From an uncultured virus (IMG/VR IMGVR_UViG_3300002219_000864) (Duplodnaviria > Heunggongvirae > Uroviricota > Caudoviricetes), in IMG/VR virus record IMGVR_UViG_3300002219_000864, positions 1-64,000 of that record: a DNA stretch of 64,000 nt; one strand, given 5' to 3'. How positions within the stretch are numbered: position 1 is the first letter of the stretch; each line of letters starts with the position of its first letter. Below are positions 1,004-31,104 of the stretch, one piece after another. Made by a program: the position numbers and the translations under genes. The notes under the pieces were generated by a model. That model was not told the origin of the DNA. It was given only the letters and a program-made list of their open reading frames with translations, and did not search any database.

Positions 1004-4000
1004 TCATTCCCCAACCCTAAGCAACTCCCGTTTCGTCGGTACCATGACTCCCTTTATCTGTCTGCTCATCTCCGATGACCGGATGAGTGGCACCCTGCCT
1101 GCCAGACCTGCATTGATAAGGGCCTTGTTGTATTCACCCTGCTTTTTGTATATCTTCGTCAACCCAGTATTTGTCCTGTTCGGGTTAACTGCCCAGGTCC
1201 GCAGCTCTTCATAGAGAGCGTCTTTCCTTTTTACAAAACCCTGTTCTTCCTGATACATCTCGTTGCTTCTTTCCCGTGTTAACGATTGCCGGGAACTCTG
1301 AAAACCTATGACCCTTGCTGCTGTTTCTCCTACTGTCGGTTTGTACGGCTTTATTCCCTTGTCCCACAGGACACGGGTCTTTTCTGTTACGACACCTGTT
1401 TTGGCTTCCCGTATCCCCCGTAGGATGTTTGCCGCAGCTGTGGGCAGTGTTTTCTCCAGCGCCCTTCCAGTCTGTCCAGTGCTCACGAAATGACTGGCTT
1501 TCGCGATATCCTCGGCAACACCACCTATTGCACCCGTCAGGCCCAATAGCCCTGTCGGGATACCAAGTCCAATCCCCAGCGATCCTGAAATATCGACACC
1601 GGCCAAGCCAAACGTTCCTCTACGCCCTAAAACTTCAGCGTGCTCACCAAGGTATTTCCTCGTCTTGTCCCACACGAACTTGTCCACCCCTGTGGTGATG
1701 CCCAGCATTCGGAGCATGCCGTTGATAAGCCACAGTAACTCATCTTTGAACGGCCACGCAGCTCCACCGGCGATAATCAGCGGTGCAGCCAGCGCCCAGG
1801 TAAAACCAACAATGTTGTGTTTCTTTGCGCCGAGATCATATAAGAGCTCGACATAGTTGTGGCCAAAGTTGCCATAGACATACATGGCCTGCCCTACCCG
1901 TGCACTTGCCGATGTTCCCTGAGCCCATTCCGGCATGTTTGCCTTGCCATATGCTGCATGCGCCTTATCGGTGGCCTCGATCGCCGCACTGTAAGATGCC
2001 TCCACGAGTTCCTCACCGGTCAGCCCTTCCCGTTCAAAGCGCTGTTTTGCCACCTTGTATGCCGCGAGGATCGTCGTGCCCCTGTTCCACTGCTCGGTTT
2101 TGCTGAACATGAACATGGCCACTTTCATCATCCGGTCCCACGAGCGTTCAAGACCTCCCTGCATGGCACCCAACGCATCCCTGGTGAGTTGCGGGGCGTC
2201 GTACCCTTCCCGTGTGATACGCTCGGCTACAACCTGATCCTCTGCCACCAGGGTCCTTCCCGCCATGTGTTTCGCATAGGAACGGCCCGCACTCGCGATC
2301 TCTTTGTGCACGGTCACCATACTCACCTTCCCGCCACCGGCATACTGGTGGATGGCGGCAGGGGCGGATGTCACGATGGCCGTCAGGTTGACGACTGCTG
2401 AGCGCGGGTTGAACCCTAAGAATTTCAAGGTCGCAACTGCTTTTGCATACGCCATAACCCTGTCGGCGATATCGCTGTTTCTCAGGTTCTCCTCGATGTA
2501 CCGCTTCGCGGTGTCGTATGCCTTCGGTTCATTTGTAGGGTCGATCTGCTGGAGAAGCTCGGTCGCTTTCTGAGAGACCTCGCCTTTTGCCATGCCCCCG
2601 GCAACGCCCGACGTGTAGCGCAGGTATGCCTCGATGGGGTCTTCGATGTACCCCTTGACCACCCTCCCCTTGGGAACACGGTGTATCTTGGTGGATTCGA
2701 TGCCCCGCTCGCGGATCATGGTGGCGGCCTGCTCAATCAGGTCTTCGTTGAACTTCGCGAGCAGATCGGCGCTTATCGTGCTCTTCATGCCGGTCACGGC
2801 ATAGTCAATAGACTTCTGCACGTCGATCGTCCTGATGTTCAGGTAGACCGATTCCGGCAGCCTCTGGGAATCTCTCACCTTTACCTCATGGTACCCTTCC
2901 CGCTCAAGCTCCTTTGACCGCAGCTCACTCCAGTATTTGCTCCCCTGTTCGCGGATGTAGTGACGGTCCCCAAATTCGTCTTCCTTGTACGCGGTTATGA
3001 CTATGGATCCGGTCTTTCTCAACCGCGGGAAGTAGTAACCCCGCCACTGGTCCATGACCTGCAAGGCCCCCATAATGGTCTGCCTCAGCTCGGCCTTGTA
3101 ATCCTTGTGGGCCTTCCGGAAGGACTGCTTGTGGTCGTTCCACCAGTCTTCCGCTGTCTGTTCGGTGAACGCTTCCTTCGAGAAATGGATGGCCTGGACC
3201 TCCACACCCCCGGCCCGGCTGTGCCCCATGATATAATTGATCCCTTGGTGGTAGGGCAGCCCTGCCCGCTCCTGCCTCTCCTTCCCCGAAGCGGTCCAGA
3301 AACTGTCGAATTCCTTCGTGGGCCTCACGGTAAAAATGTGGAAATTCTTGGTCCCTTCCTCTTCAAGTGCAAATGGGTCCTCTTCGTATCCCTGCTCTTC
3401 GAGCTTCTTGAGCAGTTCCTTCATGGGTGCCTGCCGTGCGTCGAGCATCTTGTCGAAAGCTGCCCTGATGAGTAGAGCAACCCTTTTGACATCCTCGGAA
3501 ACCTTCATGTTTTTGATGCGGTCTTCAAAGGTCCACTCCTTCTCACGGACCCACTCAGTGTCAGCCACGATCAGGATACGCGAAAGGTCCTCGTAACCCT
3601 TCCTGTCAGTCTTTCGAAGCCTGGCCACTTCCTCGGATACGGTCGTAGCTTTCCCGGTGTCGTTGAAATCGTAAAATAACTCGTGATACGTTTCCTGGCG
3701 GTGGTGGGCCATGACGTTGAAGAGCTGCTTCAACACCGGATGTTCATACCATAAGGGGTTCTTCAGCACCCGTTCAAGGAAATGGGCGTGCGGAAGGTTC
3801 TCCGGCATGTGTGCCATGATGGTTGCCGCTGCCGCCTTCGCGTGATCACGCAGCCATCCCTTGATCTCCAAAGGCGACGCCTTGGGCTCCGGTGGGGCAA
3901 TCGCCTCGATCTGGCGCAAGATGTCATCTAGGACCGTGCTGCCCGTCGAATGACTTTCCATCGCCTTCTTGAAGTACGTCCCGGTGGTAGCCTTCGGCAT

Positions 4001-7000
4001 GACCCCGGAATAGCTTCGCGCCCGGTCAATCAGATGGAGGATGTCGGCATCAGTCCACGCAAGGTTCGGAGCTATCCTTCTCAGCGCTGCCCGAATGATC
4101 CCAAAGACCCTGGTCCATACCGGCGTGGCTTCCCGTGCCTCCGCCATGTGGGCGATGAATTCATTGACGGCAACCCTGCGGTCATCCCTGTCGTTTAAGT
4201 CGAGGGGAAGCCTCAAGGTCCCCATTTTCTGGCCGTACCCTGTGACGATGCGATCCATGAGCGGCGTCCCCTGGTATGCTTTCGCGATCTGCTGCCAGAT
4301 GAGATCCACATCGGCATTCCGAAGAATTGCGGTGATCCCCCGATGCCCGATTGTCTCATGGATGAGGGTAACGATTGCAGACCGTGCGTTCGGGATGGAG
4401 TCAGCGATGATATAGGTGGTGTCCGTTTCCTGATCGTAGGCCCCGAAGATGGTGTCCCCCTCCTGCACATACCGCATGAACCGAACCGGCAGCTCACGAC
4501 CAGACTTGATGACCTGTACCTTCCCGATGTTCTTCCACTGATTCAAGGGCAGTGCAAGGAACTGTCTCACCTGGTCCACTGAGAACCGTGGCGTCTTCGG
4601 CGGTCGGATGTCAAAGGAGAGGTTCTTCATGTCATCCGCGGTGGTCAGCTTGAGGAACGTCGGGTCTGCGTCGGGGGTTACCATGCCCCGCTTCATCATG
4701 CTACCGCCAGCATCGATGACGTCCAAAACCTGGAGGTTGGCTGCCTTCCCAAAATTGGAAATATTCCGAGCTTCCTCTTCGAGAAGCGCTCGCTGCGGGG
4801 CATATACGATCATGTTTGAGGCGTTCCTCCGCTCAGCTTCCTTAAGCAGCATGCGCTGGATCTCTCCCCGTATCGGCGTCAGCCTCTCTATCGCAATGGT
4901 ACTGATTAATTTATTGCGAACGTCGAAAAAACCTACGGTAATATTCGGGTTATCTTCTTTGATCCCGGCGAGGTTGAATATTTTTACCGCCTCGGCAGGG
5001 GATGACGCGGCCAGTCTTCCGGTCTTCTGTTTGCTGTAACGCCGCTCAACAACGGGGATCGTTTCCGTCTGCGGGCGTTTTTTTAGCATTTTGCCGGTCG
5101 TATCCCTTACCCCGCCCTCGTAGTAGTTCATTGCCACATATTCCGTCGGTGTGACGGCCATGATCCCGTGGACCGTCGCTCCCGACCCCTGGGCGAGTCG
5201 AAACAACCTATCCCCTACATTTTTGTCCTCTTCGGACAACTCCGCTACGCCAGACGGGTGGTTGTGGATAAACCATAGCCCCGTCACTCCCTCGGTGTTG
5301 AGGGCTTGCCCGACGGCCACGACAGGCTGCACGATCGACGAGGATATACCGCCCCTGCTTATGCGGTGGACGCTGTGGACAGTACCGTCGTCTTTGGTGA
5401 GGATTGCTGCGAATGTTTCCTGGGGATCGTCGAGAAGGTTGCGGGCTATCTCACTAACATCGTCAATGCTTCTAATCTTGCTTGTTCCAGCGCGATAGCT
5501 GCCGATTCTTTCAGTGAAAACTTCTTGTTTACGCGATACGGCGCTGGGTCTTCGACGAGAAGTTCGTCCGGATTCGGCGGTGTCGGTATTGAATAGCGCA
5601 CCCTGTTCTTGTGCTTTGTCGCCATACCCAAGTTTATTCTCTGCGATACTGGTTGTCAACTGGCCGCCCCCGCCTTCCACATCGAAGATGGGGCTGATGG
5701 CCAGGATTTCTTTCATTACCGCGATCCCGTCGTCGCCGGTGGGGATAAATACCCGTGTCTTATAGCTGATGCGCTCGATGAGTGCACCGCTGTGTTCAAG
5801 CTGCGTCTCGAACCGCCACAGGGTTTCGCCGGTGACTTCGATCCGGTCCATACCCTGGGTTCTCACGCGCTTCAGCGTCCAATCGTTCGCAAGCTGTATC
5901 GTTTCCCCATTGTCCAGGATGGCGTTGTATGCCTGTTCCGGCGTGTACGCTGCAGTTGACTTGTCAACATTGAGCTTTTTCAGCACACCGTTGAGGCTCC
6001 TGTCAGGAATCAGCCGGCCCAGCAGCTTTTCGCCCGTGTTGAGCTTGAGCCGCATCACCCTGACGTGTTCCTGGGGGAGCCGGTCCCATATGGGCAAGAG
6101 GGCACCGGTAATAAGGTGGATCTTTCTCGTTTTCGTCTTCGGCACCTTGTCGTGCTGTTCACCCCATATCGCTTCGGCCTTCGCCATGTCATCAATCCGT
6201 TCGTATTTTTCCCCGTCCTTAAGGTCTTGCGCTTCCACAACATGTACAGTGCCCCGGGGACTCGTGAGGGTTACGACAGCCGTCACTTCGCCGGTGCCGG
6301 TATCGGTGGTGATCCGCTCCCTGTTTGCCGCCCATACAACACCACTCTTTTTGTTCACCACATATCCGGAGGCTGCCCACATTTTACTTGTCCGAAAATC
6401 AACGGTTACAGCGTCCTCGGAGAGTTCGATCTCGTTGTACTTTGTCTGCTCTCCCTGGGGACCGGTGTACACAATTTCTTCCCGGGTCCGTTTCGCCCCC
6501 TTTGCTAAAATGGTTTCCATGCCCGCGTCGAGGGTACCGTCTGCAGCAGCCTTTTCGATGATCTTGTCAAGGTGGGCGTCGAAGGCATTAAAAACTTCCT
6601 CTTGCCGGTCCACGGTCAGCGAAAGCAGCCTGTTCAAAAATTGGGTTATCTCGGGGATGTCGTCCCTGAGCTGACCCTGGTCGTCGGTCAGCCTCATGCC
6701 CGTTTCTTGTTCAAATTCCGCCATAGACATGTTCTCAATTCCGCCGCGGTAAATCGTGTGGATGAGCCGGATGAACGCCTGCCGCGCGTGCGAATTTTCA
6801 AGGTTGTCCTTCAGCTTGAAGATGCCCTGCGTCGCCGTGTCGCGCTGCCCCTTAGTGAGCGATCCCAATTGTTCGAGACGTCGCGCAATAGAGGAGATGA
6901 ACCGTTTCTGCCCCTTCAGGTTTGTTGTGACCAGGTGAACGTAAGGAGGCTGTTTCTGGTTGCTCCGGTGGGTCCGGCCCAACCCCTGGATAGCCCGGTC

Positions 7001-10000
7001 GGCCCTCCAGCCAGGTTGCAGTAAATAATGGTGCCGCAGCCGCTGGTTCTTCTCTGTCTTGTCCGCGTGGAAGCTCCTGCCGGTTCCAGCCGCGTCGGAA
7101 AAAACGAGAAGCTGTTTCTTGTCATTCATGAAAGCATGGATGTCGTTGAGCCCTTTCGCCTTGCTCCACCGTTCCACGACCCGCTCTTTCTCGCCCTGGT
7201 CGTTTGTTTTGTCTACAAGCCTTTTCGACCGGCCCGTTGCCTCCGCTGCCTTCTCGATGCCAAAATGGCGGATAATCATGTCAAGGGGTGCATCCGGCAC
7301 CTTCAGCATGCCGAGCCTCCGCAGCAGCGCGTCGCGCATGGCCACGGCTTCCCGGTTGATGACGGGGTTCCCCTTCGAGTCGAGGACAGGGCGCGAACGA
7401 ATATTTCCGTTGTCGTCGGTGTACTCTTCATATTGCTGGACAGGGAAGCTGTGTTCCAGGTAGTTCATCAGCCCCTCACGCGGGGTGAGATCGAGGTCTT
7501 CCAGACGTTCCCCCTCCTCCCGTCTGGCCATCGCCCGGTCGGTTTGTGCCTCGTTTGTGTTCACGAGCTGCACCACGGCTGCGTCGCCGTCGGCGAGGTT
7601 CTTCTCTATAGCCTTGATGACTGTCGGGGTCTGCATGGACGTGATGATCTGGTTGAAAAACCGCTGATGCGCGCCCCAGAATGCGCCCATGACATTCTTT
7701 CTGGCGTTGCCGTTCCTCGTGATGACCTGCCCGGTGTGGTTGGTCGCGGTTACGCCTGTCGCCTGGAGTGCGGCGTGGATGTTCTGCAACACGATCTGCC
7801 ATGACCGGGCCATCTCATCGTAAATGGCCTTCTGGTTCTCGGTCAACTCGTGCTCGATAGTTTCGTACTTCACCCCGTCAAAGGAAAGGTTCCGGGCACT
7901 ATAGGATCCCATGGCCTTGAGCCCCTGGGCGATCATTTCCATGCCGGCGATACCAGCACCGGAAATCTGCTCGATGAAATTCCGCTTGTTGGAAAAAGGC
8001 GTTCCCTTCCCCCACAACCCGAGGTGATCGCAGTAGGAAAGGTTCGCAACTTCCGTTGCACCCGTTGCTGACGCATAGACAACCCGCGAATTGTATAGAC
8101 GCGACTGCAGCTCAACGCCAACGACCGCCTTCATGGACGGCTTTTTCGTCCCCCGCTTCCCCCTGGTAGACAGAGCGTTTCCCATGTTGTGGGATTCGTC
8201 AAATGCTATGACACCGTCGAAATCCTCACCAGTCCACTCGACGACGGGGTCAATCCGGCGCGCCGCGCCTTTTTTGTACTTTAACGTGTCGTAGCTTATG
8301 AAAAGGATACCCTCTTTCTGCTTGATGGGCTGGCCGAATTTCACGGTGGCATAATCTATTACCAGGTTCGGGTCCATGCCGAGTGCTATAAGATCGCGCT
8401 TTGCGTCGTGGATAAGGTCCGTATTCTGGCTTATCCAGAGAGCCCTGCGCCGGCCCCGATTCCAGTTATCGAGGATGATGCCGGCGATCTCCCGGCCCTT
8501 GCCCACTCCGGTGCCATCACCGATGAAGAATCCCTTGCGGAATGTGTGGAACGTTTTGCCTTCCTGGCTCCCGCTGCTTGCAACGTTGCCTTGTGCGTCA
8601 AGATAGACGCCGGAGTCGAGGGTTTCCCCGTGGGCCTGTCCGGCCATGGTGATAGCTTCGAGCTGGACGTCGCTTAATGCACCGGTTTCAGCGAGTTTCT
8701 TGTCGATATTTGGCACATACCGAGTTTTTGGAGCTTTTACGGTGGCCATCGCCGCACTTTCAACAAGTTCCGCCGGGTGCGGCTGCGCCCCATCAATTTT
8801 TATGGAGGGCGTGTATTCCTCGAAGATGTTGCCCGATTCGAGGTCTTCGTCTGAATATTCTTCGGTTTGTTGAACGGTAAGGGCTGGCTCGGGGGTTAGT
8901 AATTTGCCGCTTCCAGCATGCTCGTCAGCTGGTCTACTACCGCCCACGCCAGGTCTTCCGCTGATATCGTCGGCAGCTCTCTCTGGTCCGCCAGGTCCCC
9001 GTCCCTCTGGAGCAGTCTCCAGGCCCGTTTCGGTTCCAGCCCCGCCAGCTCCTCGAAGAAGGGGTATACCTCCTGGCCCCGGACGCTGTTGAGCGGGACC
9101 CTGCCCGCGTTCCACTGTTCCTCCACCAGCTGGAGGCAATACAGCATCGACGGGTCGGGATCCTTGAGAAACTTCTTCGCTGCCTGGTTGAGCGGATGGT
9201 TGTTCTGTGACACTGTTTCTCGCATCGCGTACTCCTTTCAGGAGGGCAACGGCATGTTTGATGTCGCTGACTTCCTCTTGTATTACTGTAGCATTCATTT
9301 TCGATTTGTCAATCACGATCAAGCGGTTGTCATAGGTGGTGCCGTATTTTTTGTAGCCCTCGCCGGAGATGGTGATATCGGCGATTACGTCATTGGTGAC
9401 ATCGATGTTGTCCAGCCACTCGTTGAAAGTTTTCGATTCGCCGAACAACCCCTTGCCGGTGAGCACCACAAGACGCCCACCTGGCTTAAGCCTCGACAAC
9501 GCCTGGCCAATATGCCTGATGAGGTTCTCGGGGCTTCTGCGCCCCTGCATCCGGCCTGCCGTTGCAGAAAAGGGCGGGTTCATGATGATTACGGTGGGCT
9601 TTATGTGATCTGGAAGGATGTTATTGAGCTGCTCGCCGTTCTCGGTGAACACCTGCCCGAAACCCATCTGCCGCAACATGCTTGCCCTCCGCTGCGAAAG
9701 TTCATTAACGTACACCTTCGCCCCTGCGTTCCGGGCAAACACCGCGAGGCCGCCCACACCTGCCGATGGCTCCAGGACCGTCTCCCCCGGCTTGATGTTC
9801 GCCACCCATGCCATGAGGAAAGCCAAATCCGGGGGTGTCGAGAACTGCTGGTACTCGTCCATCTCCTTTGTTCTGAAGCCATGCTGCGAGGGGATCTTGT
9901 CAAGGACGTGTTCCCGTATGCTGTCAATCGTGTCACGGGCGTCGATGACCATGCCTCTCGTGGGATCGTATAAGCGCTGGCCCTGTCCGAGGTAGCGGTT

Positions 10001-13000
10001 TATACCCAGCTCCATGGCATCGAAGAGGTCCTTCCAGGTGAACGCTCCGCTGGCAATGGTGCCGCCGTACGCCTCTTCCCCCCACTTCATGAGCTGCTCA
10101 CGGGTGAACGTTTCCTGGTTGGCGAGCGCGGCATCGACCTTTGCCATGATGGCGCGGGCGGCCTTTATCTTGTCGGCGTCCATGCGTTCTTCGGTTGGTG
10201 ATGGTGCCTGCGGTTGCTTGGGTTGGGTTCCTTGCCCGGTTGCATTTGGTGCGGCTGTTGTTTGTGTGCTCTCGTCTGTTGTTAGAAATCGAGGATCTTT
10301 ACGCTCTACATCAAACGTTATTCCGTTTCTGGTAGGAGTAAGGCCAACTGGTTCGGTTATCCGGATGGGTCCCTCCATGATGGAGCGGACGCCCTTCTCG
10401 TCCTCGAATATCTCCTGGCCATACTTGTTCTTCCCGATAGCCTTTGGTATCAGTGCCCCCCTGCCCGTCGTTAAGGGTGACTTCTCCGTTCCCCCTTTCT
10501 TGGATTGCCATGGCACCATGTCCGGGTGACTATACATAGCATCGAAAGCCTTGGTGATCTTCTCCGCCGGATCCTCGGTACCGTAAAATGACCATACCTT
10601 CTTAGGGCCGTACCATATTCCTCTCGCCTTCTTGATCGCGTCCTTGTAGTTCCTGGTGTTGCCCCCAAGGTTCCACACGGGATGCCCGTTCTTGGTCGTT
10701 GTCTTTACCAGGGTCAACCCGACGCTTTTCAGCTTGTCGTAAGCGTCTGATGTGCCGGTAACGGTTCCGGTTTCCGGTGTGTGCGCCGCCTGTTGCTGCG
10801 GTGGCTGTTCCTTCGGCTTTGGCCTGATTTTCTCCGCCTCTTCCGGGTATTGACTCGCCCACGCATCAAAAGCGTCCTGGTACTTCTGCGCGTCCTTGTC
10901 GTAGCTTGCAGCGACACGTAAATGAGAAGCCCTGTTAGAATCTTTTCGTGCCCGGGTAGCTGCTTCCCGTGAGTTCTGCGCGTGTTTCTTGCTGTACGAG
11001 ATCATGCCAAAGACGTTCTCGGGTGTCTGCCACCGGCCATCGAAGTAAATATCCTTCACGAGCTTGCCGGTAAACGGTTCTGTTTCGCGTTCAAGTTCCT
11101 TTGCCTGCATGGACGGAAAGCTCAATCCGTTGTCGGTTTCCACTTCATAGGTGACGGTGTGCGATGATTGTCCCCCGAAAATGGGTGTCATGGTGTAGCC
11201 TCCTACCGCCTTGACGACGCCGTGCCTGCCTCGCATGGACAAACCGTAATGCTTATCGTTGATTACAACCCGGTCGCCGGCTTTGTACGTTTCGGGCTTC
11301 GGTGTCTCCTTTGGTGCCTCCGCTTCCTGTTTTTTGGTCATAAGGTCGTGGCGTTTGATGTACTTGAGTACCGCCTCGGCGAAACTCTTGGCGTCCCAGG
11401 TGTTCAGATATACCCTTTGCGATTCCGACAGTGGCGCATTACTGCTCAATATCTCATTAACCACGTCGCCGTGTGCTTCATTAGCCCATTTTTCAAGGGC
11501 TATCAATATATTTCGTTCGCCATTGTCAGCGTTCAGATACGGCTTTGCCTTCTCTATTGTTAGGTCGCGGATCCTCTCGGAAAGAGACATGTCAAACGTT
11601 TTGCCCTTTCCCGCTGGCTTCCCTGCATCTGCCATCAGCTTCTTGTCGATGGCCTCGACGATCTTCGAGGTGTACCAGTTTCCCTCGAATTTCACGCCCA
11701 ACATTCCGGCATACATACGGGCCTTGATAAGATGGTCGCGCCAGCCGTCGGGAGGATCTATTTTGGCTTTCTTCCCCTGGGCGATCTCTGCGGCCACGTC
11801 CCACGCCTTTTTTTCCGACGGGAATATCATTACAGTCGGCAAGAATTCCATGGAGTCATTGTCTCTGATGGATACGGAAAAGCTATTGCCGTTGATGTTA
11901 CCAGCGACGAATATTTCGAGGTTGTTTTCCTTGTCTGGTATGGTGCCAAGAAGTTCTGTCGGGCCAAAAGGCGGCTTCTTTGCCCCGGTTTCGGAGGTTG
12001 TGCCCGTGGGATTTATACCCACGGGCGTTTCCTTTCCTTCCATCGCCCTAGATGCTGCCCGCTGTTCTGCCGTCGGCATCCTCAAATTTCCTGTTGTTGT
12101 ATGCAGTTCATCCTTTATATTGTTGGCTTTTTCTGTTTCTCCCCCCTCGATCGCTTCTTTTATGGCCTTCTTGGTTTCGTCAACCACCGCCTCGTAATCG
12201 GAGAACCTTGGGCCAACCAACTTCTTGAGCCTCGCCCCCAACTCTTCGTCAACATCCCCTATGTTTTCTGCAAGAGCGCTGGACACCGGCCCCCACGAAA
12301 ATCCCTCCTCGGCGGGGCCTTCTTCGATTTCCTTCGGGGCTTCCGTTTTTGCCACTTCCGGTACAGGCTTATTTTGTTCCTCGGCATACTGCGCGGCTGC
12401 CGCTTCGTAAAACTGTTTCGCCTTCCCTTCCGGCTGCGCGTCAACGGCACCAAAGAGATACGCCTTCACATCGAGGCCCTTAGTCGTGGCCCGCTTTGCG
12501 ATCTCTTCAAGGATCGGCCGTAGCTTCTGGTACAGCTCCTGCTTGATACCCTCAGTCTTACCGTAGTCGATACGGGTATCCGATACCTTTCCCTCATCTT
12601 CTTCGATGAAGTGGTTGATTATATCGAATGCGTCTGTGACCAGCTCGTTGATTGATTTCTTTGAAAGGTCCTCGGTTGGTGGAACGTTGATCTTTTGAGG
12701 CTTATTCTTTGCCGCGAGGGCTTCCGCCAGCTTCTTCTTCTGCTCTTCTTCTTTTTCCCGCTCGGTTTGAAATACTGGCTTGGGCCGTGTGAACAGTTCC
12801 GCTTTCGGTTCTTTTGTGGTTTTGAATTCCCCCTGCTTCACGGGCTGGTTGCCGGAGAGGGTGAAGATGTCGTTGGTGTTGAAAAGTTCCCCGTCTGTCG
12901 TGGGGGCTGGCCGCTCGGTTTTGGATTTCTTTACTTGTTCTTTGAGGGCCGCAAGTCTTTCAGCAAACTCTTTGCCAGCGATTTGATTATCACTTGCTGC

Positions 13001-16000
13001 TTCAAGGCCGCTAACAATTTGGCCGATCTCGGTGTCACTGAACCCTTCTTCATATAATTCCTCCTTTAAACCTATAATATTGATCTCAGTTGTGTCAACA
13101 ATCGCCTCAATATCCTTTTCCGGGATAAAACCGTCATCCTGGAGCTGCTCTTCGGTCAGCGGTATTGCTGCCGTTTCAATCTCCTGTTCCTGTTCCTGTG
13201 CTTTCCCGCCCTTATTCTGAAAACGCGCCATTTCGTCCGTTATAAGGTCGAACACCTCCGACTCGGTCCACTCCACCGTGCCCCGTTCCTGTCCAGCCAA
13301 ACCCGAAGGCGGCTGTTTCATGGGAATTTCCCCGTTGTTCATGGCCTCGTTGAACAATTGGGTAAATGAGTTCCAGCGGGAATCGCTGCCGCCGGCAAGG
13401 TCCTGTCCTTTCCTTATTTTCTGCAAAAGCGGTAAAAAGTACCGGTATTGTTTAAAAAACGTGTAGCATGGAAAGGGGGTATCTTCGGTGATAGCCTTGG
13501 GCTTCTTTGTTGTCTTCGGCGTTTTCTCCTTCGCCTCGGCTGCCGCTGACCCTATCTTTTCACGCTCCTTGATATTGCGCATCAAATCGTCACGGGCACC
13601 CCGTTCCGTCATGGCAACACCGATCACATCCTTATGCGGCCCTTCGGTAACGGTCGCCATATACCCGCCTTTATATGTGTCGCCGGTCGTAATTTTCCTG
13701 AGAGTATGGGGTGGAAGCTCTTTCTTCTTCGCCTTGGCCTGCGCTGCCTCTTCCTCTTTCGTTACTTCGTGGATCCCCATTTTAGCGGGTGCTTTTTTTG
13801 TCTGTGCCCCGGCCTCAAGGCTGGATAACCAGGAACGTAAAATGTTGGCTTCTTTTTTCACGGTCGCTGATGATTCGTCTTTCACGCGCTTCTCTAAGGC
13901 ATTCCGATAGTCCTGTATGGCTCCAAGCAAGGCAGCCTCGCGGGTGTCATATTGCTTGCGTTCGTAGATCCCGGGGTGCCGGCCGTGGCCGCCGTTGGCA
14001 ATGTTGATATTATACCCATACGTCCAGGTGCCGTTCGGGGCTTTGCCGAGGGTTATGCCGTTCGACGAAACATAGCCCTTTTTGGATGGTGGCGCCTCTA
14101 TCTCTTCGGTTTGTAGCTTATACTTTGCCCTGCCTAAATTGTCTCTCTGCTTTTCGGTAAATCCCCATATCGTTTCTGCAAGTTCGTCAGCCTGGGCGTT
14201 GTCAGCTTCCGTGTGAGTTAATCCTTCCGGCATTTTCGTTGTTGACATAGCGCCGGCATAGGGGTGCTTTTGTCTGATTGCTTTAACGGCGGCAGAAATA
14301 TCCCCATTTTCTTGCTTGGCGGTCTGCGATTCTTTCGGCACTTTCCCGCCGAATTGCCGTGCTATATCGGGATATTTGGCAAGGACATCCGGCGGAATAG
14401 GATGCTTGAGCTGCAATGCTACCGCCAGCGATGTTTCGCTCCATTCTCCTTTATTTTCTTTGTCAGTAACGGCTTTCTGGTCAGTTATTTTCTTAAATTC
14501 ACTTTCCGGGGCTGCGCTGGCCATCGAAATTAATTCATTCGGCTGCTTATTTGGGTCTTCATCCCACTTTACGTATAGTCTTATGGTGGGCTGGTCTTTG
14601 GTGGGCTGATATATTTGAGCCACCGTTCCGGTTCGCCCTCCCCGTGTTACCCTGTCTCCTATTGAAAAAGCCGAGCTGGTCGATTTATCGGCCGATTCTT
14701 GTTTAGTGCCACTAAACTTTTCGTCATCTTTTAAATTGGTCGTTGCCGTGGTGTCAGAGGAAGGTGCTTCTGCCCCCTGCTCGCCTGTGTCGCTCGCGAG
14801 AGAGAGTAGTTTATTTGACCGTTCAATTTCTTTTTCATCCGGTGCTATATATCCGCCGGGAGTAAGAGCTTTTCCCTCAATGGTTTTCGTGTCAAGCTCC
14901 AAAACATCGTCTGAAGACACTGTCGATTGCGGTTCAACGATATCCGGTACGGTCATCTCATCGAGTTCGTCCATGGGTTCGCTTGGCAATATCGCTGCCT
15001 CTTCCGCTGCTTTTTGCGCTTCCTGTGCCATCCGTATCCCGTCAGCCATGCCTGATGGAAGGTTGGCCATACGCGCGTTGTCGAGAATGACACGGTCCAT
15101 GCGCTGTATTTCCGGGTGTTGTTCACCCAGAACTGCCGCTGCCTTCTGTCTGATGACTCCTGCCTGCTCGGTCGTGATCTGTCCGTTTTCTAAAGAGTTT
15201 TTTACCTGTTCGACAATAGCGGTTGCCTGCTGGTCGCCAGGTGGTAACGGCGGTGTCGGCTGTGGAGATGGTGGCATCGTTGGCGGCTGCGTTCCTGGTG
15301 GGGTCATCGGGGGTTGTACTGCTGGCTGTCCCATTATTGGCGGTTGCGTTGCCGGTTGCCCGCCCAATTCTCCCGTGACTGGTTCGCCGGCCTTTGTTAC
15401 ATCCTTCGTTCCAGCTTCATAAGTCTTCCGAGCGATTGCCCCAGTTGCTCCGCCGATACCAAAGCCACCCACTGCCCCGGCTGCCGCTGCATCGACCGCC
15501 TCCAGAAATTGTTTCCTGGTCAACAAGTCGCTTGGGTCAATACCGTATTGTTCTGCATATGCCTGGAAGAATTCCTCCGATCCTTCACCGAGCATCTGTG
15601 TCAGCGCGGACTGGCTTATGCGGTTCCACAACCCCTTCTTCGCAAATTCAGCAACGTCGGGACCAAATTTGAGCAGCTTGGCCGTTGCTTTCTCAGTGCC
15701 GAGTTCCTCGAACTTCGACGCGATGAATATTGCGGCCAGTCCCCGAAGTGGGCTGAGCTCCCTGGTTTCCCCTTTCTCAAGGCGTTCAATCTGGCCACCG
15801 AGGATCTCTCCCCCTTCCATCATGGCAATGGGTACGTCCATGGGTTTGAGCTTCGCCCAATCCACAAGATACGACAATGCCTTCTTGCCCAGGGTCGTCT
15901 TCGCCACCTCCGGCGCAACCTTGGCCATCTGGACAGCCCTGCCCTGGAGCATAAACGGTGCGGTTATCGCTACCTGCGCCCCCATCTGCCCCAGTGCCCC

Positions 16001-16525
16001 GGCCCCCCACTTGAAAAAGCCTTCCGGATCCTTTATGTCATAAATGGACCCGACTTCCGGCTCAACTTTCTTTAACGGCTCATCCCAATACTGCCGCACC
16101 TGTTTCCCGAACCGCGTCGTCGCACCTTCCTTTGGTGGCCCAGGAGGCGGTTCATAGGTCGGCCCGTTCGGATCCGCTTTTGGTATAGGTGTCCCTAAAT
16201 GCTCCGGCCCAATCTCGTCTATACCCCACTCCGGAGGCGAGCCTGTGTACTGGTCGCCTATTCGTCCGAGGTACTCGATGGCAGAGCCTATGCCCTTGTT
16301 CGCCTGGAGCCATCCGCGGGCAATGCCTTTGACGCCTTCCCGCGTGATGCCCACCATGCTCTCCCCGATCTTCCGGTAGATGCTTCGGTCGTCCGTGTCG
16401 GGGCCGAACGTTTCCGTTGTCCCGGCCAGTTCATCAAGAAATCCTCGTTTTGCCGGTTTTTCTGCTTTTTTTCCCTCTATTGTCGTTGTTCCAGCGAGTT
16501 CATCAAGAAAGTTGTCGTTAGCCAC
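1004..16525 (-). CDS. Giant (5173 aa) DarB-like polyvalent virion/ejection protein: N6-adenine MTase, Strawberry-notch SF2 helicase, RadC/JAB, zincin-like HExxH peptidase, helical C-terminal region
   Basis: GTG start with GGAGG SD. MTase motifs VLEPSAGVGG (~9780) and NPPF (~9575). SBNO motifs GDGTGVGKGRE (~8510), DESH (~8195), QGLGRTHRSNQ (~6975). JAB HNHPSG...S.ED (~5260). HETIGH (~4350). Last gene of the structural module. Confidence 0.9.
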   Translation of the reverse strand: MANDNFLDELAGTTTIEGKKAEKPAKRGFLDELAGTTETFGPDTDDRSIYRKIGESMVGITREGVKGIARGWLQANKGIGSAIEYLGRIGDQYTGSPPEWGIDEIGPEHLGTPIPKADPNGPTYEPPPGPPKEGATTRFGKQVRQYWDEPLKKVEPEVGSIYDIKDPEGFFKWGAGALGQMGAQVAITAPFMLQGRAVQMAKVAPEVAKTTLGKKALSYLVDWAKLKPMDVPIAMMEGGEILGGQIERLEKGETRELSPLRGLAAIFIASKFEELGTEKATAKLLKFGPDVAEFAKKGLWNRISQSALTQMLGEGSEEFFQAYAEQYGIDPSDLLTRKQFLEAVDAAAAGAVGGFGIGGATGAIARKTYEAGTKDVTKAGEPVTGELGGQPATQPPIMGQPAVQPPMTPPGTQPPTMPPSPQPTPPLPPGDQQATAIVEQVKNSLENGQITTEQAGVIRQKAAAVLGEQHPEIQRMDRVILDNARMANLPSGMADGIRMAQEAQKAAEEAAILPSEPMDELDEMTVPDIVEPQSTVSSDDVLELDTKTIEGKALTPGGYIAPDEKEIERSNKLLSLASDTGEQGAEAPSSDTTATTNLKDDEKFSGTKQESADKSTSSAFSIGDRVTRGGRTGTVAQIYQPTKDQPTIRLYVKWDEDPNKQPNELISMASAAPESEFKKITDQKAVTDKENKGEWSETSLAVALQLKHPIPPDVLAKYPDIARQFGGKVPKESQTAKQENGDISAAVKAIRQKHPYAGAMSTTKMPEGLTHTEADNAQADELAETIWGFTEKQRDNLGRAKYKLQTEEIEAPPSKKGYVSSNGITLGKAPNGTWTYGYNINIANGGHGRHPGIYERKQYDTREAALLGAIQDYRNALEKRVKDESSATVKKEANILRSWLSSLEAGAQTKKAPAKMGIHEVTKEEEAAQAKAKKKELPPHTLRKITTGDTYKGGYMATVTEGPHKDVIGVAMTERGARDDLMRNIKEREKIGSAAAEAKEKTPKTTKKPKAITEDTPFPCYTFFKQYRYFLPLLQKIRKGQDLAGGSDSRWNSFTQLFNEAMNNGEIPMKQPPSGLAGQERGTVEWTESEVFDLITDEMARFQNKGGKAQEQEQEIETAAIPLTEEQLQDDGFIPEKDIEAIVDTTEINIIGLKEELYEEGFSDTEIGQIVSGLEAASDNQIAGKEFAERLAALKEQVKKSKTERPAPTTDGELFNTNDIFTLSGNQPVKQGEFKTTKEPKAELFTRPKPVFQTEREKEEEQKKKLAEALAAKNKPQKINVPPTEDLSKKSINELVTDAFDIINHFIEEDEGKVSDTRIDYGKTEGIKQELYQKLRPILEEIAKRATTKGLDVKAYLFGAVDAQPEGKAKQFYEAAAAQYAEEQNKPVPEVAKTEAPKEIEEGPAEEGFSWGPVSSALAENIGDVDEELGARLKKLVGPRFSDYEAVVDETKKAIKEAIEGGETEKANNIKDELHTTTGNLRMPTAEQRAASRAMEGKETPVGINPTGTTSETGAKKPPFGPTELLGTIPDKENNLEIFVAGNINGNSFSVSIRDNDSMEFLPTVMIFPSEKKAWDVAAEIAQGKKAKIDPPDGWRDHLIKARMYAGMLGVKFEGNWYTSKIVEAIDKKLMADAGKPAGKGKTFDMSLSERIRDLTIEKAKPYLNADNGERNILIALEKWANEAHGDVVNEILSSNAPLSESQRVYLNTWDAKSFAEAVLKYIKRHDLMTKKQEAEAPKETPKPETYKAGDRVVINDKHYGLSMRGRHGVVKAVGGYTMTPIFGGQSSHTVTYEVETDNGLSFPSMQAKELERETEPFTGKLVKDIYFDGRWQTPENVFGMISYSKKHAQNSREAATRARKDSNRASHLRVAASYDKDAQKYQDAFDAWASQYPEEAEKIRPKPKEQPPQQQAAHTPETGTVTGTSDAYDKLKSVGLTLVKTTTKNGHPVWNLGGNTRNYKDAIKKARGIWYGPKKVWSFYGTEDPAEKITKAFDAMYSHPDMVPWQSKKGGTEKSPLTTGRGALIPKAIGKNKYGQEIFEDEKGVRSIMEGPIRITEPVGLTPTRNGITFDVERKDPRFLTTDESTQTTAAPNATGQGTQPKQPQAPSPTEERMDADKIKAARAIMAKVDAALANQETFTREQLMKWGEEAYGGTIASGAFTWKDLFDAMELGINRYLGQGQRLYDPTRGMVIDARDTIDSIREHVLDKIPSQHGFRTKEMDEYQQFSTPPDLAFLMAWVANIKPGETVLEPSAGVGGLAVFARNAGAKVYVNELSQRRASMLRQMGFGQVFTENGEQLNNILPDHIKPTVIIMNPPFSATAGRMQGRRSPENLIRHIGQALSRLKPGGRLVVLTGKGLFGESKTFNEWLDNIDVTNDVIADITISGEGYKKYGTTYDNRLIVIDKSKMNATVIQEEVSDIKHAVALLKGVRDARNSVTEQPSAQPGSEEVSQGSRPVDAVLPPAGGGTVERGQGPAQQRPGPGGIPLLRGAGGAGTETGLETAPEGRGPGGPERAADDISGRPGVGGSRPADEHAGSGKLLTPEPALTVQQTEEYSDEDLESGNIFEEYTPSIKIDGAQPHPAELVESAAMATVKAPKTRYVPNIDKKLAETGALSDVQLEAITMAGQAHGETLDSGVYLDAQGNVASSGSQEGKTFHTFRKGFFIGDGTGVGKGREIAGIILDNWNRGRRRALWISQNTDLIHDAKRDLIALGMDPNLVIDYATVKFGQPIKQKEGILFISYDTLKYKKGAARRIDPVVEWTGEDFDGVIAFDESHNMGNALSTRGKRGTKKPSMKAVVGVELQSRLYNSRVVYASATGATEVANLSYCDHLGLWGKGTPFSNKRNFIEQISGAGIAGMEMIAQGLKAMGSYSARNLSFDGVKYETIEHELTENQKAIYDEMARSWQIVLQNIHAALQATGVTATNHTGQVITRNGNARKNVMGAFWGAHQRFFNQIITSMQTPTVIKAIEKNLADGDAAVVQLVNTNEAQTDRAMARREEGERLEDLDLTPREGLMNYLEHSFPVQQYEEYTDDNGNIRSRPVLDSKGNPVINREAVAMRDALLRRLGMLKVPDAPLDMIIRHFGIEKAAEATGRSKRLVDKTNDQGEKERVVERWSKAKGLNDIHAFMNDKKQLLVFSDAAGTGRSFHADKTEKNQRLRHHYLLQPGWRADRAIQGLGRTHRSNQKQPPYVHLVTTNLKGQKRFISSIARRLEQLGSLTKGQRDTATQGIFKLKDNLENSHARQAFIRLIHTIYRGGIENMSMAEFEQETGMRLTDDQGQLRDDIPEITQFLNRLLSLTVDRQEEVFNAFDAHLDKIIEKAAADGTLDAGMETILAKGAKRTREEIVYTGPQGEQTKYNEIELSEDAVTVDFRTSKMWAASGYVVNKKSGVVWAANRERITTDTGTGEVTAVVTLTSPRGTVHVVEAQDLKDGEKYERIDDMAKAEAIWGEQHDKVPKTKTRKIHLITGALLPIWDRLPQEHVRVMRLKLNTGEKLLGRLIPDRSLNGVLKKLNVDKSTAAYTPEQAYNAILDNGETIQLANDWTLKRVRTQGMDRIEVTGETLWRFETQLEHSGALIERISYKTRVFIPTGDDGIAVMKEILAISPIFDVEGGGGQLTTSIAENKLGYGDKAQEQGALFNTDTAESGRTSRRRPSAVSRKQEVFTERIGSYRAGTSKIRSIDDVSEIARNLLDDPQETFAAILTKDDGTVHSVHRISRGGISSSIVQPVVAVGQALNTEGVTGLWFIHNHPSGVAELSEEDKNVGDRLFRLAQGSGATVHGIMAVTPTEYVAMNYYEGGVRDTTGKMLKKRPQTETIPVVERRYSKQKTGRLAASSPAEAVKIFNLAGIKEDNPNITVGFFDVRNKLISTIAIERLTPIRGEIQRMLLKEAERRNASNMIVYAPQRALLEEEARNISNFGKAANLQVLDVIDAGGSMMKRGMVTPDADPTFLKLTTADDMKNLSFDIRPPKTPRFSVDQVRQFLALPLNQWKNIGKVQVIKSGRELPVRFMRYVQEGDTIFGAYDQETDTTYIIADSIPNARSAIVTLIHETIGHRGITAILRNADVDLIWQQIAKAYQGTPLMDRIVTGYGQKMGTLRLPLDLNDRDDRRVAVNEFIAHMAEAREATPVWTRVFGIIRAALRRIAPNLAWTDADILHLIDRARSYSGVMPKATTGTYFKKAMESHSTGSTVLDDILRQIEAIAPPEPKASPLEIKGWLRDHAKAAAATIMAHMPENLPHAHFLERVLKNPLWYEHPVLKQLFNVMAHHRQETYHELFYDFNDTGKATTVSEEVARLRKTDRKGYEDLSRILIVADTEWVREKEWTFEDRIKNMKVSEDVKRVALLIRAAFDKMLDARQAPMKELLKKLEEQGYEEDPFALEEEGTKNFHIFTVRPTKEFDSFWTASGKERQERAGLPYHQGINYIMGHSRAGGVEVQAIHFSKEAFTEQTAEDWWNDHKQSFRKAHKDYKAELRQTIMGALQVMDQWRGYYFPRLRKTGSIVITAYKEDEFGDRHYIREQGSKYWSELRSKELEREGYHEVKVRDSQRLPESVYLNIRTIDVQKSIDYAVTGMKSTISADLLAKFNEDLIEQAATMIRERGIESTKIHRVPKGRVVKGYIEDPIEAYLRYTSGVAGGMAKGEVSQKATELLQQIDPTNEPKAYDTAKRYIEENLRNSDIADRVMAYAKAVATLKFLGFNPRSAVVNLTAIVTSAPAAIHQYAGGGKVSMVTVHKEIASAGRSYAKHMAGRTLVAEDQVVAERITREGYDAPQLTRDALGAMQGGLERSWDRMMKVAMFMFSKTEQWNRGTTILAAYKVAKQRFEREGLTGEELVEASYSAAIEATDKAHAAYGKANMPEWAQGTSASARVGQAMYVYGNFGHNYVELLYDLGAKKHNIVGFTWALAAPLIIAGGAAWPFKDELLWLINGMLRMLGITTGVDKFVWDKTRKYLGEHAEVLGRRGTFGLAGVDISGSLGIGLGIPTGLLGLTGAIGGVAEDIAKASHFVSTGQTGRALEKTLPTAAANILRGIREAKTGVVTEKTRVLWDKGIKPYKPTVGETAARVIGFQSSRQSLTRERSNEMYQEEQGFVKRKDALYEELRTWAVNPNRTNTGLTKIYKKQGEYNKALINAGLAGRVPLIRSSEMSRQIKGVMVPTKRELLRVGE
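5446..5625 (-). CDS. Candidate overprinted 59-aa ORF inside the giant gene (+1 frame), probably leaderless
   Basis: MATKHKNRVRYSIPTPPNPDELLVEDPAPYRVNKKFSLKESAAIALEQARLEALTMLVR*; ATG lies 5 nt after a TTGACA-17-TAAACT promoter. Confidence 0.5.
   Translation of the reverse strand: MATKHKNRVRYSIPTPPNPDELLVEDPAPYRVNKKFSLKESAAIALEQARLEALTMLVR
5631..5659 (-). promoter_or_regulatory. Intragenic sigma70-like promoter
   Basis: Minus strand TTGACA (5659-5654), 17 bp ACCAGTATCGCAGAGAA, TAAACT (5636-5631). Confidence 0.65.
8896..9225 (-). CDS. Candidate overprinted 109-aa protein in the MTase-helicase linker of the giant gene (+1 frame)
   Basis: SD AAAGGAG (9238-9232) 6 nt before ATG. Product has globular helical composition, while the host frame here is low-complexity G/P/R-rich. 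Confidence 0.65.
   Translation of the reverse strand: MRETVSQNNHPLNQAAKKFLKDPDPSMLYCLQLVEEQWNAGRVPLNSVRGQEVYPFFEELAGLEPKRAWRLLQRDGDLADQRELPTISAEDLAWAVVDQLTSMLEAANY
9285..9312 (-). promoter_or_regulatory. Intragenic sigma70-like promoter with extended -10
   Basis: Minus strand TTGACA (9312-9307), 16 bp spacer ending in TGC, TACAGT (9290-9285); about 60 nt upstream of the nested ATG at 9225. Confidence 0.6.
12931..13053 (-). CDS. Candidate overprinted 40-aa basic peptide inside the giant gene (+1 frame)
   Basis: AAAGGAGG (13067-13060), 6 nt, then ATG: MKKGSVTPRSAKLLAALKQQVIIKSLAKSLLKDLRPSKNK*. TTGTTGACA at 13101-13093 and TATTAT at 13079-13074 upstream. Confidence 0.4.
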   Translation of the reverse strand: MKKGSVTPRSAKLLAALKQQVIIKSLAKSLLKDLRPSKNK

Positions 16526-30024: not shown

Positions 30025-31104
30025 CTATGCGTTCGGGTTGATGCAGTAAGTGTCCACTGCAACGACCCCGAAGTCTTTGCTGTTGTACCGGGACTTCTTC
30101 ACGCCGTAGATGGTGCCTGCAGTAATAGCCAGCGCGTTGCCCCTGTCGTCCGTCTCCTCGTTCCAGGTGTACCGTCCGGGGGCGTTGTTCCCGCCCCAGG
30201 CGATGATCCCCGCCTGCGCGCCGAGCAGAAGCGCCCTGGCTGCGGGCTGTGCTCCGTCGGAGCCGTAGTCGGAAAAGCGGATCACGTTCCGGTGCTTGTG
30301 CATGACAATTCCGTTGTAGCTGCCCAAAGCGTTCTTGTAGATCAGGCTGTCCTTGCCGTCGGTGTTCTTGTGGATGTCGATCCAGTCGTTGGCGCTCACC
30401 GAAGCCCTGAGATCAAACGCCTGCCACACGTGCATGAGCAGCACGTATTCAAGCTCTCCGTCCACGGAGAAGGGGAGCATGACCGGGTCAACCGTTTCCA
30501 CGGAGGCCACGGCCTTGTCGCAGATGGTGAGGTCCATCTTGTCGCCTGAGTCGAGGTCAGCCTTGCCGGTTGCGTTCCCTCCGTAGAAGATGTGGTTTGA
30601 GTCCGGCACGGTCAGCGCATTGCTCGCCCGACCGGTGAAGCCCAGCGGCGCGTGCAGCGACGCATCGATCCCTCTGGCGCCGGCGAGGTACATCATGATC
30701 TGCTCGTCATAGTCCTCTGCCCACCACGTGGCAAGGGCGTCGCGGCCTTCTTTCCTCATGTTGTAGGGGACGCGCTGCTCGGACATCTGGCCCTTGGACT
30801 TGGTGCCCTTCCTCCTCTGGTCGATGTAGAGCGCATCGTAGAAGAAGTTGAGGGCCTCTTCCGCACTCGTTCCCTCGATGATGTTGTCGCCCTCGGTGCC
30901 GTCCCCGGCCAGTTTCATTCTGAGGCCCACGGTGATCATCTCACCGGCCTTCTTGGACAATTCCTGCTGAATCTTGATCAGCGCATTCTCGTCGGTGCCC
31001 ATGAACTTCCGGAAGTACTGCTTCTTCTCGGCTTCCACGGCCAGCGACGTGCTCCACCGGCGCACTGCCAATGGGTCGTTTAATGGAAAATCTGTTGCTG
31101 CCAT
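30025..31104 (-). CDS. Major capsid protein, N4-gp56/DUF4043 family
   Basis: ELSKKAGEMITVGLRMKLAGDG.EG, IDQRR, RALLLGAQA, EE.DDRGN, G.KKSRYNSKDFGVVAVDT. Confidence 0.9.
   Translation of the reverse strand: MAATDFPLNDPLAVRRWSTSLAVEAEKKQYFRKFMGTDENALIKIQQELSKKAGEMITVGLRMKLAGDGTEGDNIIEGTSAEEALNFFYDALYIDQRRKGTKSKGQMSEQRVPYNMRKEGRDALATWWAEDYDEQIMMYLAGARGIDASLHAPLGFTGRASNALTVPDSNHIFYGGNATGKADLDSGDKMDLTICDKAVASVETVDPVMLPFSVDGELEYVLLMHVWQAFDLRASVSANDWIDIHKNTDGKDSLIYKNALGSYNGIVMHKHRNVIRFSDYGSDGAQPAARALLLGAQAGIIAWGGNNAPGRYTWNEETDDRGNALAITAGTIYGVKKSRYNSKDFGVVAVDTYCINPNA

Follow-up and report, generated by a model that had tools for sequence, protein, structure and literature searches.

Can the gene for a giant, multi-enzyme phage protein hold a second, complete gene in another reading frame, and are both frames then maintained? 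This question is raised by a locus in a 64,000-nucleotide stretch of DNA (hereafter the window) from an uncultured virus (Caudoviricetes; IMG/VR record IMGVR_UViG_3300002219_000864). A minus-strand open reading frame (ORF) of the window, 5173 amino acids (aa) long, encodes a polyvalent protein; wholly inside it, on the same strand and in its +1 frame, lies a second ORF, situated in the spacer that separates the methyltransferase and Strawberry-notch helicase modules of the giant protein. An earlier note, made from the letters alone, had proposed that this nested ORF is a gene with its own expression signals. It had also suggested that the giant frame becomes rich in glycine, proline and arginine (G/P/R-rich) over the same stretch because the other frame is under selection. 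The comparisons described here support this view: with a probability of about 0.9, positions 8896-9225 (−) represent a genuine, dual-coding gene, overprinted in the +1 frame of the giant spacer.

The elements named in the earlier note, namely a promoter, the sequence AAAGGAG and a 109-aa ORF, all lie at the positions that it had given, on the minus strand (Table 1). The predicted product has 109 aa and begins with MRETVSQNNHPLNQAAKKFL. The promoter-like site agrees with the consensus in 10/12 positions and has in addition the TG of an extended −10 element (TGn), as its 16-nucleotide (nt) spacer ends in TGC. Promoter-like sites occur three times per 4 kb in this region, compared with 1.2 ± 1.0 times in shuffled sequences. 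Judging from the position of the −10 hexamer, a transcript from this site would have a leader of ~53 nt. The GC content is 0.60-0.67 within the nested ORF and drops to 0.43-0.46 across the promoter-like stretch. The giant frame is of low complexity and G/P/R-rich over exactly the stretch that is covered by the nested ORF.

The central evidence concerns the way in which the two frames vary among close relatives. The set used for this purpose consists of the window and four viral contigs with 90-94% identical copies, and its alignment is free of gaps from ~1 kb upstream of the nested start onward. Both the giant and the nested frame are open in all five sequences; the third is interrupted in two, L002 and L004. 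Giant codon position 1 corresponds to the third position of nested codons. At giant positions 1/2/3, the numbers of variable sites are 22/9/51 in the upstream far flank, 16/10/38 in the upstream near flank, and 6/3/22, 18/12/65, 18/12/95 and 64/36/272 in downstream flanks 1 to 4; inside the nested ORF they are 30/10/11. When the flanks are pooled, the contrast is between 30/10/11 and 144/82/543 (chi-square p = 5e-13). Variation is therefore concentrated at the third positions of the nested frame inside the ORF, and at those of the giant frame outside it.

Estimates of the ratio of non-synonymous to synonymous divergence (dN/dS, Nei-Gojobori) for the same set give a matching result. The nested frame has a dN/dS of 0.28 with a synonymous divergence (dS) of 0.19; read in the giant frame, the same bases yield 1.39. 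The giant frame in the flanks has values of 0.08-0.12, with a dS of ~0.45. At the level of substitution patterns, this shows purifying selection on the nested frame, and together with the depletion of T-ending nested codons (see below) it bears out the suggestion that the G/P/R richness of the giant frame reflects selection on the other frame. Apart from the nested ORF, no sustained frame switch is seen in the part of the giant gene that can be aligned (10.3 kb, window 14225-3906); any other nested candidate of the earlier note that falls inside this range is therefore unsupported.

Is the giant frame itself still maintained through the overlap? When the nested codons were re-drawn synonymously with genome usage, the giant frame remained open in 0.1-0.6% of trials, with ~5 stops expected. 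In the window phage, T at third codon positions (T3) of the nested gene amounts to 4.6% vs 20.7%, and nested T3 is lower than flank T3 in 32 of 35 non-redundant lineages. Pooled across these lineages, T-ending nested codons are found in 0 of 1331 cases before AA, AG or GA, as opposed to 285 of 3015 elsewhere (9.5%; p = 9e-48). About 126 giant-frame stops would have been expected in the 1331 risky contexts, and none is seen. In each of the 43 viral loci in which the family was recognised by its hidden Markov model (HMM), the giant frame stays free of stops across the nested gene. Directly after the nested stop, coding in the giant frame restarts (6/3/22 in the adjoining flank), and no start codon is seen there; the helicase half would thus be reachable only by reading through the spacer. 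Both frames are thus maintained and appear to be functional, with the host frame apparently translated through the overlap.

Nested homologues are found at the same site and in the same frame in viral contigs, genome loci and plasmids. A scan of viral contigs with the junction alignment yielded 53 loci, 44 of them at 38-93% junction identity. In 43 of these 44, the HMM finds a +1-frame match at this site; the remaining locus, L050, has a 120-aa +1 ORF that matches the family profile with 83% probability (hhalign). In three viral contigs at 32-34% identity, the homologue again occupies the same +1 frame; the open frame that encloses it exceeds 2600 codons in each, and the homologue is bordered by "...YGTTxDNRxLVIDK...LLxGVR" on one side and "...HPxxLVESAAM" on the other. 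As anticipated for a real gene, the ORF is kept open in related phages, in the same frame and place, down to ~20-35% protein identity. Scans of the viral contigs with two database relatives added nothing: the one with P0005 led to L005, an ArdA-like ORF with one short pattern that was rejected as spurious, and the one with P0006 gave no locus.

Among genome contigs, at least 470 stretches encode relatives, and the best 80 of these correspond to 79 loci. The nested homologue is present in 18 of the 79, including a metagenome-assembled genome (MAG) of Syntrophorhabdus, isolates of Methylococcales, Clostridia MAGs, a Burkholderiales MAG and several other MAGs. The loci without an HMM match comprise two that are uninformative, being truncated upstream, a third (L072) with an unrelated +1 ORF at this spot, and others that are mostly from Alphaproteobacteria. 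Six loci without a match, out of ~58 genome loci, were inspected (L078, L088, L100, L104, L133 and L143); they have a shorter, ordinary spacer without G/P/R richness, no nested ORF was found in them, and their other frames contain junk only. The closest junction relative among genome contigs (87% identity, nested gene present) is L066, a 4.8-kb contig of the Syntrophorhabdus sp. MAG, which gives a weak hint that Syntrophorhabdus may be the host of the phage.

Four plasmids in PLSDB also carry the nested gene (tblastn). In Methylotuvimicrobium alcaliphilum 20Z, a 114-aa member is encoded at NC_016108.1 complement 105153-105497 (= L145:9683-10027), inside MEALZ_RS20390 (WP_014133156.1), the gene for a 2547-aa protein; this gene is part of a conjugative plasmid, where it follows traI, the coupling protein, traF and topoisomerase III in the transfer region. 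The other plasmid relatives come from Methylomonas sp. LL1, Methylomonas sp. AM2-LC and Thioflavicoccus mobilis 8321. In all three plasmid records with annotation at the match, including that of strain 20Z, the nested gene is unannotated. On the Thioflavicoccus mobilis plasmid (L147, NC_019941.1), the open stretch of the giant frame that surrounds the nested homologue has only 1340 codons, over most of which no coding sequence is listed, so the host gene may be broken there or marked as a pseudogene in the record. A homologue of the host gene on a plasmid of Nostoc sp. MS1 has a short spacer, in which the nested ORF was not found. With the 109-aa protein itself as the tblastn query, cultured phages gave one chance-level match (E = 0.7) and plasmids none; the family member P0018 found nothing in cultured phages, and neither did a DNA search with the region.

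In protein databases, a word-indexed search returned two 109-aa relatives, and a HMMER pass over 1.84 billion representatives gave 16 matches at E <= 1e-3. Ten of the 16 are full-length (109-125 aa), four are shorter or partial (55, 96, 119 and 201 aa) and two, the long profile matches P0007 and P0016, were rejected as repeat proteins. Those relatives that were looked up are all called hypothetical, mostly on contigs shorter than 4.2 kb. The true relatives are all small proteins, and no convincing in-frame fused form exists among the 1.84 billion representatives. In the 201-aa protein P0010, the first 38 residues match the nested family and the remainder is rich in glycine, arginine and serine, as if the gene call had run into another frame; this oddity is probably due to an insertion, deletion or assembly error in its contig. 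Comparison of nested and flank identities across lineages shows that the nested gene is co-inherited and co-diverges with the host gene: the two are correlated (Mantel r = 0.44, reached by 0 of 2000 permutations). The nested protein evolves faster, with a median identity of 24% vs 55% for the flanks.

The expression signals are conserved as well. SD (Shine-Dalgarno) sequence and ATG are invariant in all five close sequences; ATG is the start codon in 39 of the 43 viral loci, and a GGAG- or GGAGG-like SD precedes it in most of the 43, as read by eye without scoring. Both signals are written in a conserved motif of the giant protein, L-L-x-G-V-R-[D/N]-x, in which GGA GTx supplies the SD, and GAT or AAT followed by G supplies the ATG; in the window, the start signal is built from the codons for L-K-G-V-R-D-A. 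Those homologues without a nested gene that were inspected also lack the LLxGVR[D/N] motif. The −35 hexamer and the TGn are likewise invariant in the five close sequences, with TACAGT or TAAACT as the −10. In the wider comparison, a promoter-like site lies within 160 nt upstream in 18 of 35 lineages, compared with 27 of 987 control windows (2.7%; p = 2.5e-17). An exact TTGACA is present in 15 of the 35, and in 12 of these 15 a −10 hexamer follows at a distance of 16-17 nt. The sequences seen for it are TATAAT, TATACT, TATGAT, GATAAT, CAAAAT and TACAGT, and they fall where the giant protein is otherwise variable.

The protein encoded by the nested ORF is predicted to be folded, not disordered. 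With seven near-identical sequences, AlphaFold gave a mean confidence (predicted local distance difference test, pLDDT) of 62; with a diverse alignment of 44 sequences, AlphaFold2 reached a pLDDT of 87.8 and a predicted template modelling score (pTM) of 0.81. The model is a compact, all-helical bundle of six helices. Profile searches gave no significant match of the family to sequences in the PDB. The nested ORF would encode a member of a new, unannotated family with a predicted fold that lacks relatives. The family is mildly acidic overall (median isoelectric point 5.2), with net charges from −12 to +6; an idea that it might be a DNA mimic was dropped, as its members are not uniformly acidic.

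These observations can be combined into a simple picture of how two proteins could be produced from the same stretch. Ribosomes in the giant frame would traverse a stop-free, unconserved G/P/R-rich spacer. Other ribosomes would initiate internally at AAAGGAG-6 nt-ATG and make the compact, all-helical 109-aa protein. A sigma-70-type promoter, which lies ~90 nt upstream in the window phage and has counterparts in about one third to one half of the related lineages, may provide a separate short transcript, starting ~53 nt upstream; in lineages without this promoter, the nested gene would be translated from the giant mRNA. As to function, the nested protein is tentatively regarded, at a little under even odds, as a small partner of the methylase-helicase pair. 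It might attend to the large protein in the donor cell, as a chaperone or an inhibitor, or else serve as a regulatory subunit. Such a role is favoured because the gene was found only inside methylase-helicase genes, both in phages and in conjugative plasmids, and co-diverges with them. With regard to origin, the nested gene may have been born by overprinting on a linker that had expanded, or it may go back to one ancient insertion; either would fit the existence of homologues with short spacers and without the nested gene, the lack of any free-standing or in-frame relative among the matches found, and a predicted fold that has no relatives.

How well do other explanations account for the locus? 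Long open frames exist in all three phases at this place in the window, with 124 codons in the case of the third, so openness by itself means little, and one might suppose that there is no gene at all: a chance ORF in a GC-rich spacer, or conservation that stems from an RNA or DNA element. This is hardly credible in view of the three-base rhythm of variation in the nested phase, a nested frame that is intact in all relatives when the third frame is broken in L002 and L004, and protein-level homology to ~20% identity in an alignment that yields a confident predicted fold. A programmed +1 frameshift, in which the nested frame would be a recoded segment of the giant protein that ends at the TAA or shifts back, could explain why this frame is the only conserved amino-acid sequence in the stretch. 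SD-like sequences can stimulate frameshifting, as in prfB and dnaX, and one lies just upstream here. Yet an in-frame stop one to four codons before the ATG (in the window, L013-L017 and L019-L021) leaves almost no room for a shift site, the ATG is conserved, a slippery motif was not seen in the close-set alignment, and keeping the giant frame free of stops (0/1331) would be pointless if ribosomes left it; such recoding is very improbable. Much the same can be said of a selfish element that was inserted in frame and carries an ORF in another frame, as ShiLan does in actinophage methylases. ShiLan does share the layout seen here, with a hidden ORF in an insertion that lacks stops in the host frame and lies within or beside a phage methylase (PMC11855218), and the segment is absent from a large clade of homologues with shorter spacers. 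However, none of the 44 family members matches a Pfam endonuclease family or any PHROG, and fold searches gave no clear match; the ORF is fixed at one site in 43-44 of 44 contigs, not sporadic, and it co-diverges with its host, so that an element of this type is highly improbable. The search covered Pfam and PHROG nuclease families, with 0 of 44 matches, and a divergent nuclease could escape such matching.

The more serious alternative concerns function, not existence. The nested gene might encode an independent accessory effector (an anti-defence, superinfection-exclusion or lysogen-expressed, moron-like protein) that uses a mutation-tolerant spacer, its own promoter giving it a timing separate from that of the late giant gene. 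In many lineages a near-consensus promoter does lie inside this late structural gene, for example TTGACA-17-TATAAT in L032 and L042, and the record is classed as a provirus. Fast evolution is typical of conflict proteins, and the nested protein shows it (24% vs 55% median identity). Viral proteins that arose de novo by overprinting are also often accessory counter-defence factors, such as tombusvirus p19, as described in PMC11044054. An independent effector nevertheless seems rather unlikely: in the loci inspected the family is never free-standing and is confined to methylase-helicase genes (43/44 viral and 18/79 genome loci), it co-diverges with the host gene, the promoter is lacking in about half of the lineages, and the presence of the same domain pair in phages and in conjugative plasmids suggests a tie with that pair.

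Several observations weigh against a dual-coding gene whose product is a partner of the pair. Given the low T3 of the nested gene, a within-gene permutation yields P = 0.47 for the window's clade, so the open-frame argument rests on the pooled lineages and not on the single phage. The lineages without a promoter include all GC-rich ones, and the −35 hexamer comes free with conserved I-D-K codons of the methyltransferase (ATT GAC A). A scan of 7000-11000 found no intrinsic terminator after the nested gene on the minus strand. A promoter of its own is no less compatible with an effector that is timed independently than with a stoichiometric partner. Pfam and PHROGs match none of the 44 family members; Foldseek against the PDB and BFVD gave best E values above 1, and wide structural searches provided no lead (VIA-align peaks at Z 4.3, the ESM Atlas at 0.79). 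No free-standing copy was found in any locus inspected, but one may occur elsewhere, for instance among the database proteins P0005-P0019. The 21 sequencing runs listed for the region all come from DNA metagenomes. Lastly, we infer from sequence that the promoter fires and that the nested protein is produced.

The dual-coding gene is embedded in a host gene with a recognisable architecture. The giant protein has the DarB-like methylase-helicase layout, in which an adenine methyltransferase lies upstream of an SF2/SWI2-SNF2-type ATPase in one polypeptide. Its methyltransferase module was assigned by Pfam UPF0020 (23.7 bits vs a cut-off of 22.3), with MTS and N6_Mtase below their cut-offs, and the protein also bears a RadC/JAB domain (Pfam). 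The C-terminal region matches PHROGs of 3400-4600-residue proteins, one of which is labelled DarB-like antirestriction. When the giant junction was searched against cultured phages (tblastn), only the methyltransferase part was matched, at ~35% identity, in Pseudomonas and Vibrio phages, and none of these has the same layout; P1 DarB itself was not recovered, so the host gene is related to DarB in layout only. Between the helicase C-terminal and RadC domains, at 5466-5645 (−), the codon positions vary about equally (18/12/17 and 15/9/13), which resembles a relaxed linker without a frame switch. The full virus record has 78,958 bases and an estimated completeness of 100%. Elsewhere in the window, at 39705-62597 (+), there is a row of very large ORFs (953, 1569, 1834, 2104 and 715 aa), several with helicase PHROG matches and one with a weak methyltransferase match; this run may be a second large nucleic-acid-enzyme or conflict module of the phage.

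Table 1. Positions of the nested gene, its signals, the host gene and neighbouring genes in the window, and of the +1-frame ORFs in the distant clade.
Feature	Position	Strand	Basis or remark
Nested +1-frame gene, 109 codons + TAA stop	8896..9225	−	ORF list, translation, periodicity switch, homologues, model
Nested start codon ATG	9225-9223	−	
Nested stop codon TAA	8898-8896	−	
In-frame TGA, four codons ahead of nested ATG	9240-9238	−	
Shine-Dalgarno AAAGGAG, 6 nt ahead of ATG	9232..9238	−	giant frame's L-K-G-V codons
Sigma-70-like promoter, TTGACA-16 nt-(TG)C TACAGT	9285..9312	−	consensus scan; predicted
Candidate −35 TTGACA	9312-9307	−	
Candidate −10 TACAGT	9290-9285	−	
Overlapped giant spacer, ~residues 2434-2543; rich in G/P/R and glutamate (E), unconserved, stop-free	8899..9226	−	translation, alignment, dN/dS 1.39
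Host gene, 5173-aa polyvalent protein, end of phage structural module	1004..16525	−	Pfam AAA_34, Helicase_C_4, RadC; PHROG
Methyltransferase module just upstream of nested gene; NPPF motif; ends ...VIDK...LLKGVR	9220..9928	−	Pfam UPF0020, alignment
Strawberry-notch-type helicase module, downstream of nested gene	6515..8782	−	Pfam
AAA_34	7814-8782	−	E = 2.8e-107
Helicase_C_4	6515-7288	−	E = 4.8e-82
Terminase	37140-38648	−	gene order ahead of giant gene
Portal	35158-37287	−	gene order ahead of giant gene
Major head protein	30025-31104	−	gene order ahead of giant gene; then further structural genes, then giant gene
Distant-clade +1 ORF	L059:2201-2620		
Distant-clade +1 ORF	L062:2201-2608		
Distant-clade +1 ORF	L064:2201-2608		
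Distant-clade +1 ORF	L057:2177-2494		
Distant-clade +1 ORF	L058:2225-2506		

The spacer between methylase and helicase may have given rise to nested genes more than once. A distant methylase-helicase clade (22-26% junction identity) has its own +1-frame ORF in a G/P/R-rich spacer. In L059, L062 and L064, the same periodicity switch extends over ~360 nt (30/12/12 vs 49/32/194 elsewhere; p = 5e-11), and the ORF is preceded by AAGGAG-7 nt-ATG; L057 and L058 are too diverged from each other for the periodicity test. Homology of the distant-clade ORF to the present family is unsupported (hhalign 0.8%). In L072, from a Clostridiaceae MAG, a 116-aa +1 ORF (L072:2189-2536) starts at the same ...IRND... 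position behind GGAGG; its homology to the present family is likewise unsupported (hhalign 0.5%), and it may be a third nested family or an extremely divergent member. A broader proposal, which is speculative and may well prove wrong, is that the methylase-helicase spacer acts as a long-lived cradle for obligately nested genes. The present family would then be a hidden third component, born by overprinting, never free-standing and common to phages and conjugative plasmids, with at least one further, unrelated nested gene at the same spot (L059/L062/L064).

If so, the DarB-type module, which textbooks present as a pair of domains, would in fact be a system of three proteins, and the plasmid annotations checked would lack its small subunit. 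Anti-restriction work on DarB-type methylase-helicase proteins may have missed a component. Mutation or truncation of the spacer would strike two genes together. In bacteria and double-stranded DNA phages, long same-strand overlaps seldom stay conserved over deep divergence, and such cases are often disputed; the present locus offers a clean natural example of dual coding, in which dozens of lineages demonstrably keep both frames for more than 100 codons. Since the cultivable methanotroph Methylotuvimicrobium alcaliphilum 20Z carries the nested gene, a tractable system is at hand. There is also a lesson for annotation, in that gene finders would systematically miss real genes in the disordered linkers of giant mobile-element proteins.

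Full-text literature searches returned no account of a gene nested within those for polyvalent proteins of the DarB or Strawberry-notch type. The fusion of an adenine methyltransferase upstream of an SF2/SWI2-SNF2-type ATPase is known from polyvalent proteins of phages and conjugative elements (Iyer et al. 2017, PMC5512222). That paper names a Strawberry-notch example from Methylomonas, a genus that is also among the hosts with the nested gene here; the word 'overlap' has no occurrence in its main text, so the nested gene is not described in that part of the source. The account of ShiLan in PMC11855218 describes an out-of-frame HNH homing endonuclease hidden in an insertion of an actinophage DNA methylase. 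Going by this account, the likeness lies in a hidden ORF, missed by standard annotation, in an alternative frame of a stop-free insertion that goes with a phage DNA methylase. In contrast to that mobile element, the nested ORF keeps to a single inter-domain site and has diverged along with its host; nor did it match any nuclease family. Nested out-of-frame genes with distinct products are also represented by tombusvirus p19/p22 and Escherichia coli GndA (PMC11044054, PMC11230408); these belong to an RNA plant virus and a cellular metabolic gene, respectively, and have no sequence or context relation to the present family.

In comparison with morons, a promoter-like site is found here and in 18/35 lineages, and no terminator-like site follows on the minus strand (7000-11000). 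For the proposed partner role, an analogue may be seen in VirE1 of Agrobacterium, a small acidic secretion chaperone of the translocated DNA-binding effector VirE2. The analogy is functional only, between small, mostly acidic helical proteins whose genes lie beside, or in the present case within, that for a large protein with presumed delivery to a recipient cell; unlike VirE1, the present family has no uniformly acidic charge, and no sequence or fold similarity between the two was found. The closest formal parallels are the same-strand overprinted genes of phages with known roles, such as Rz1 inside Rz of lambda, and E inside D and B inside A of phiX174. As in these cases, a complete ORF lies within another gene on the same strand in a shifted frame, with its own ribosome-binding site, and both products are needed or maintained. 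Unlike them, the host here is a 5173-aa multi-enzyme protein and the overlap is confined to a disordered inter-domain spacer; the nested gene often has a promoter-like site of its own, and its family spans phages and conjugative plasmids. Overprinted same-strand genes are thus already well known; the novelty here lies in the family itself, in its place within a giant protein of several enzymes, and in its occurrence in phages as well as plasmids.

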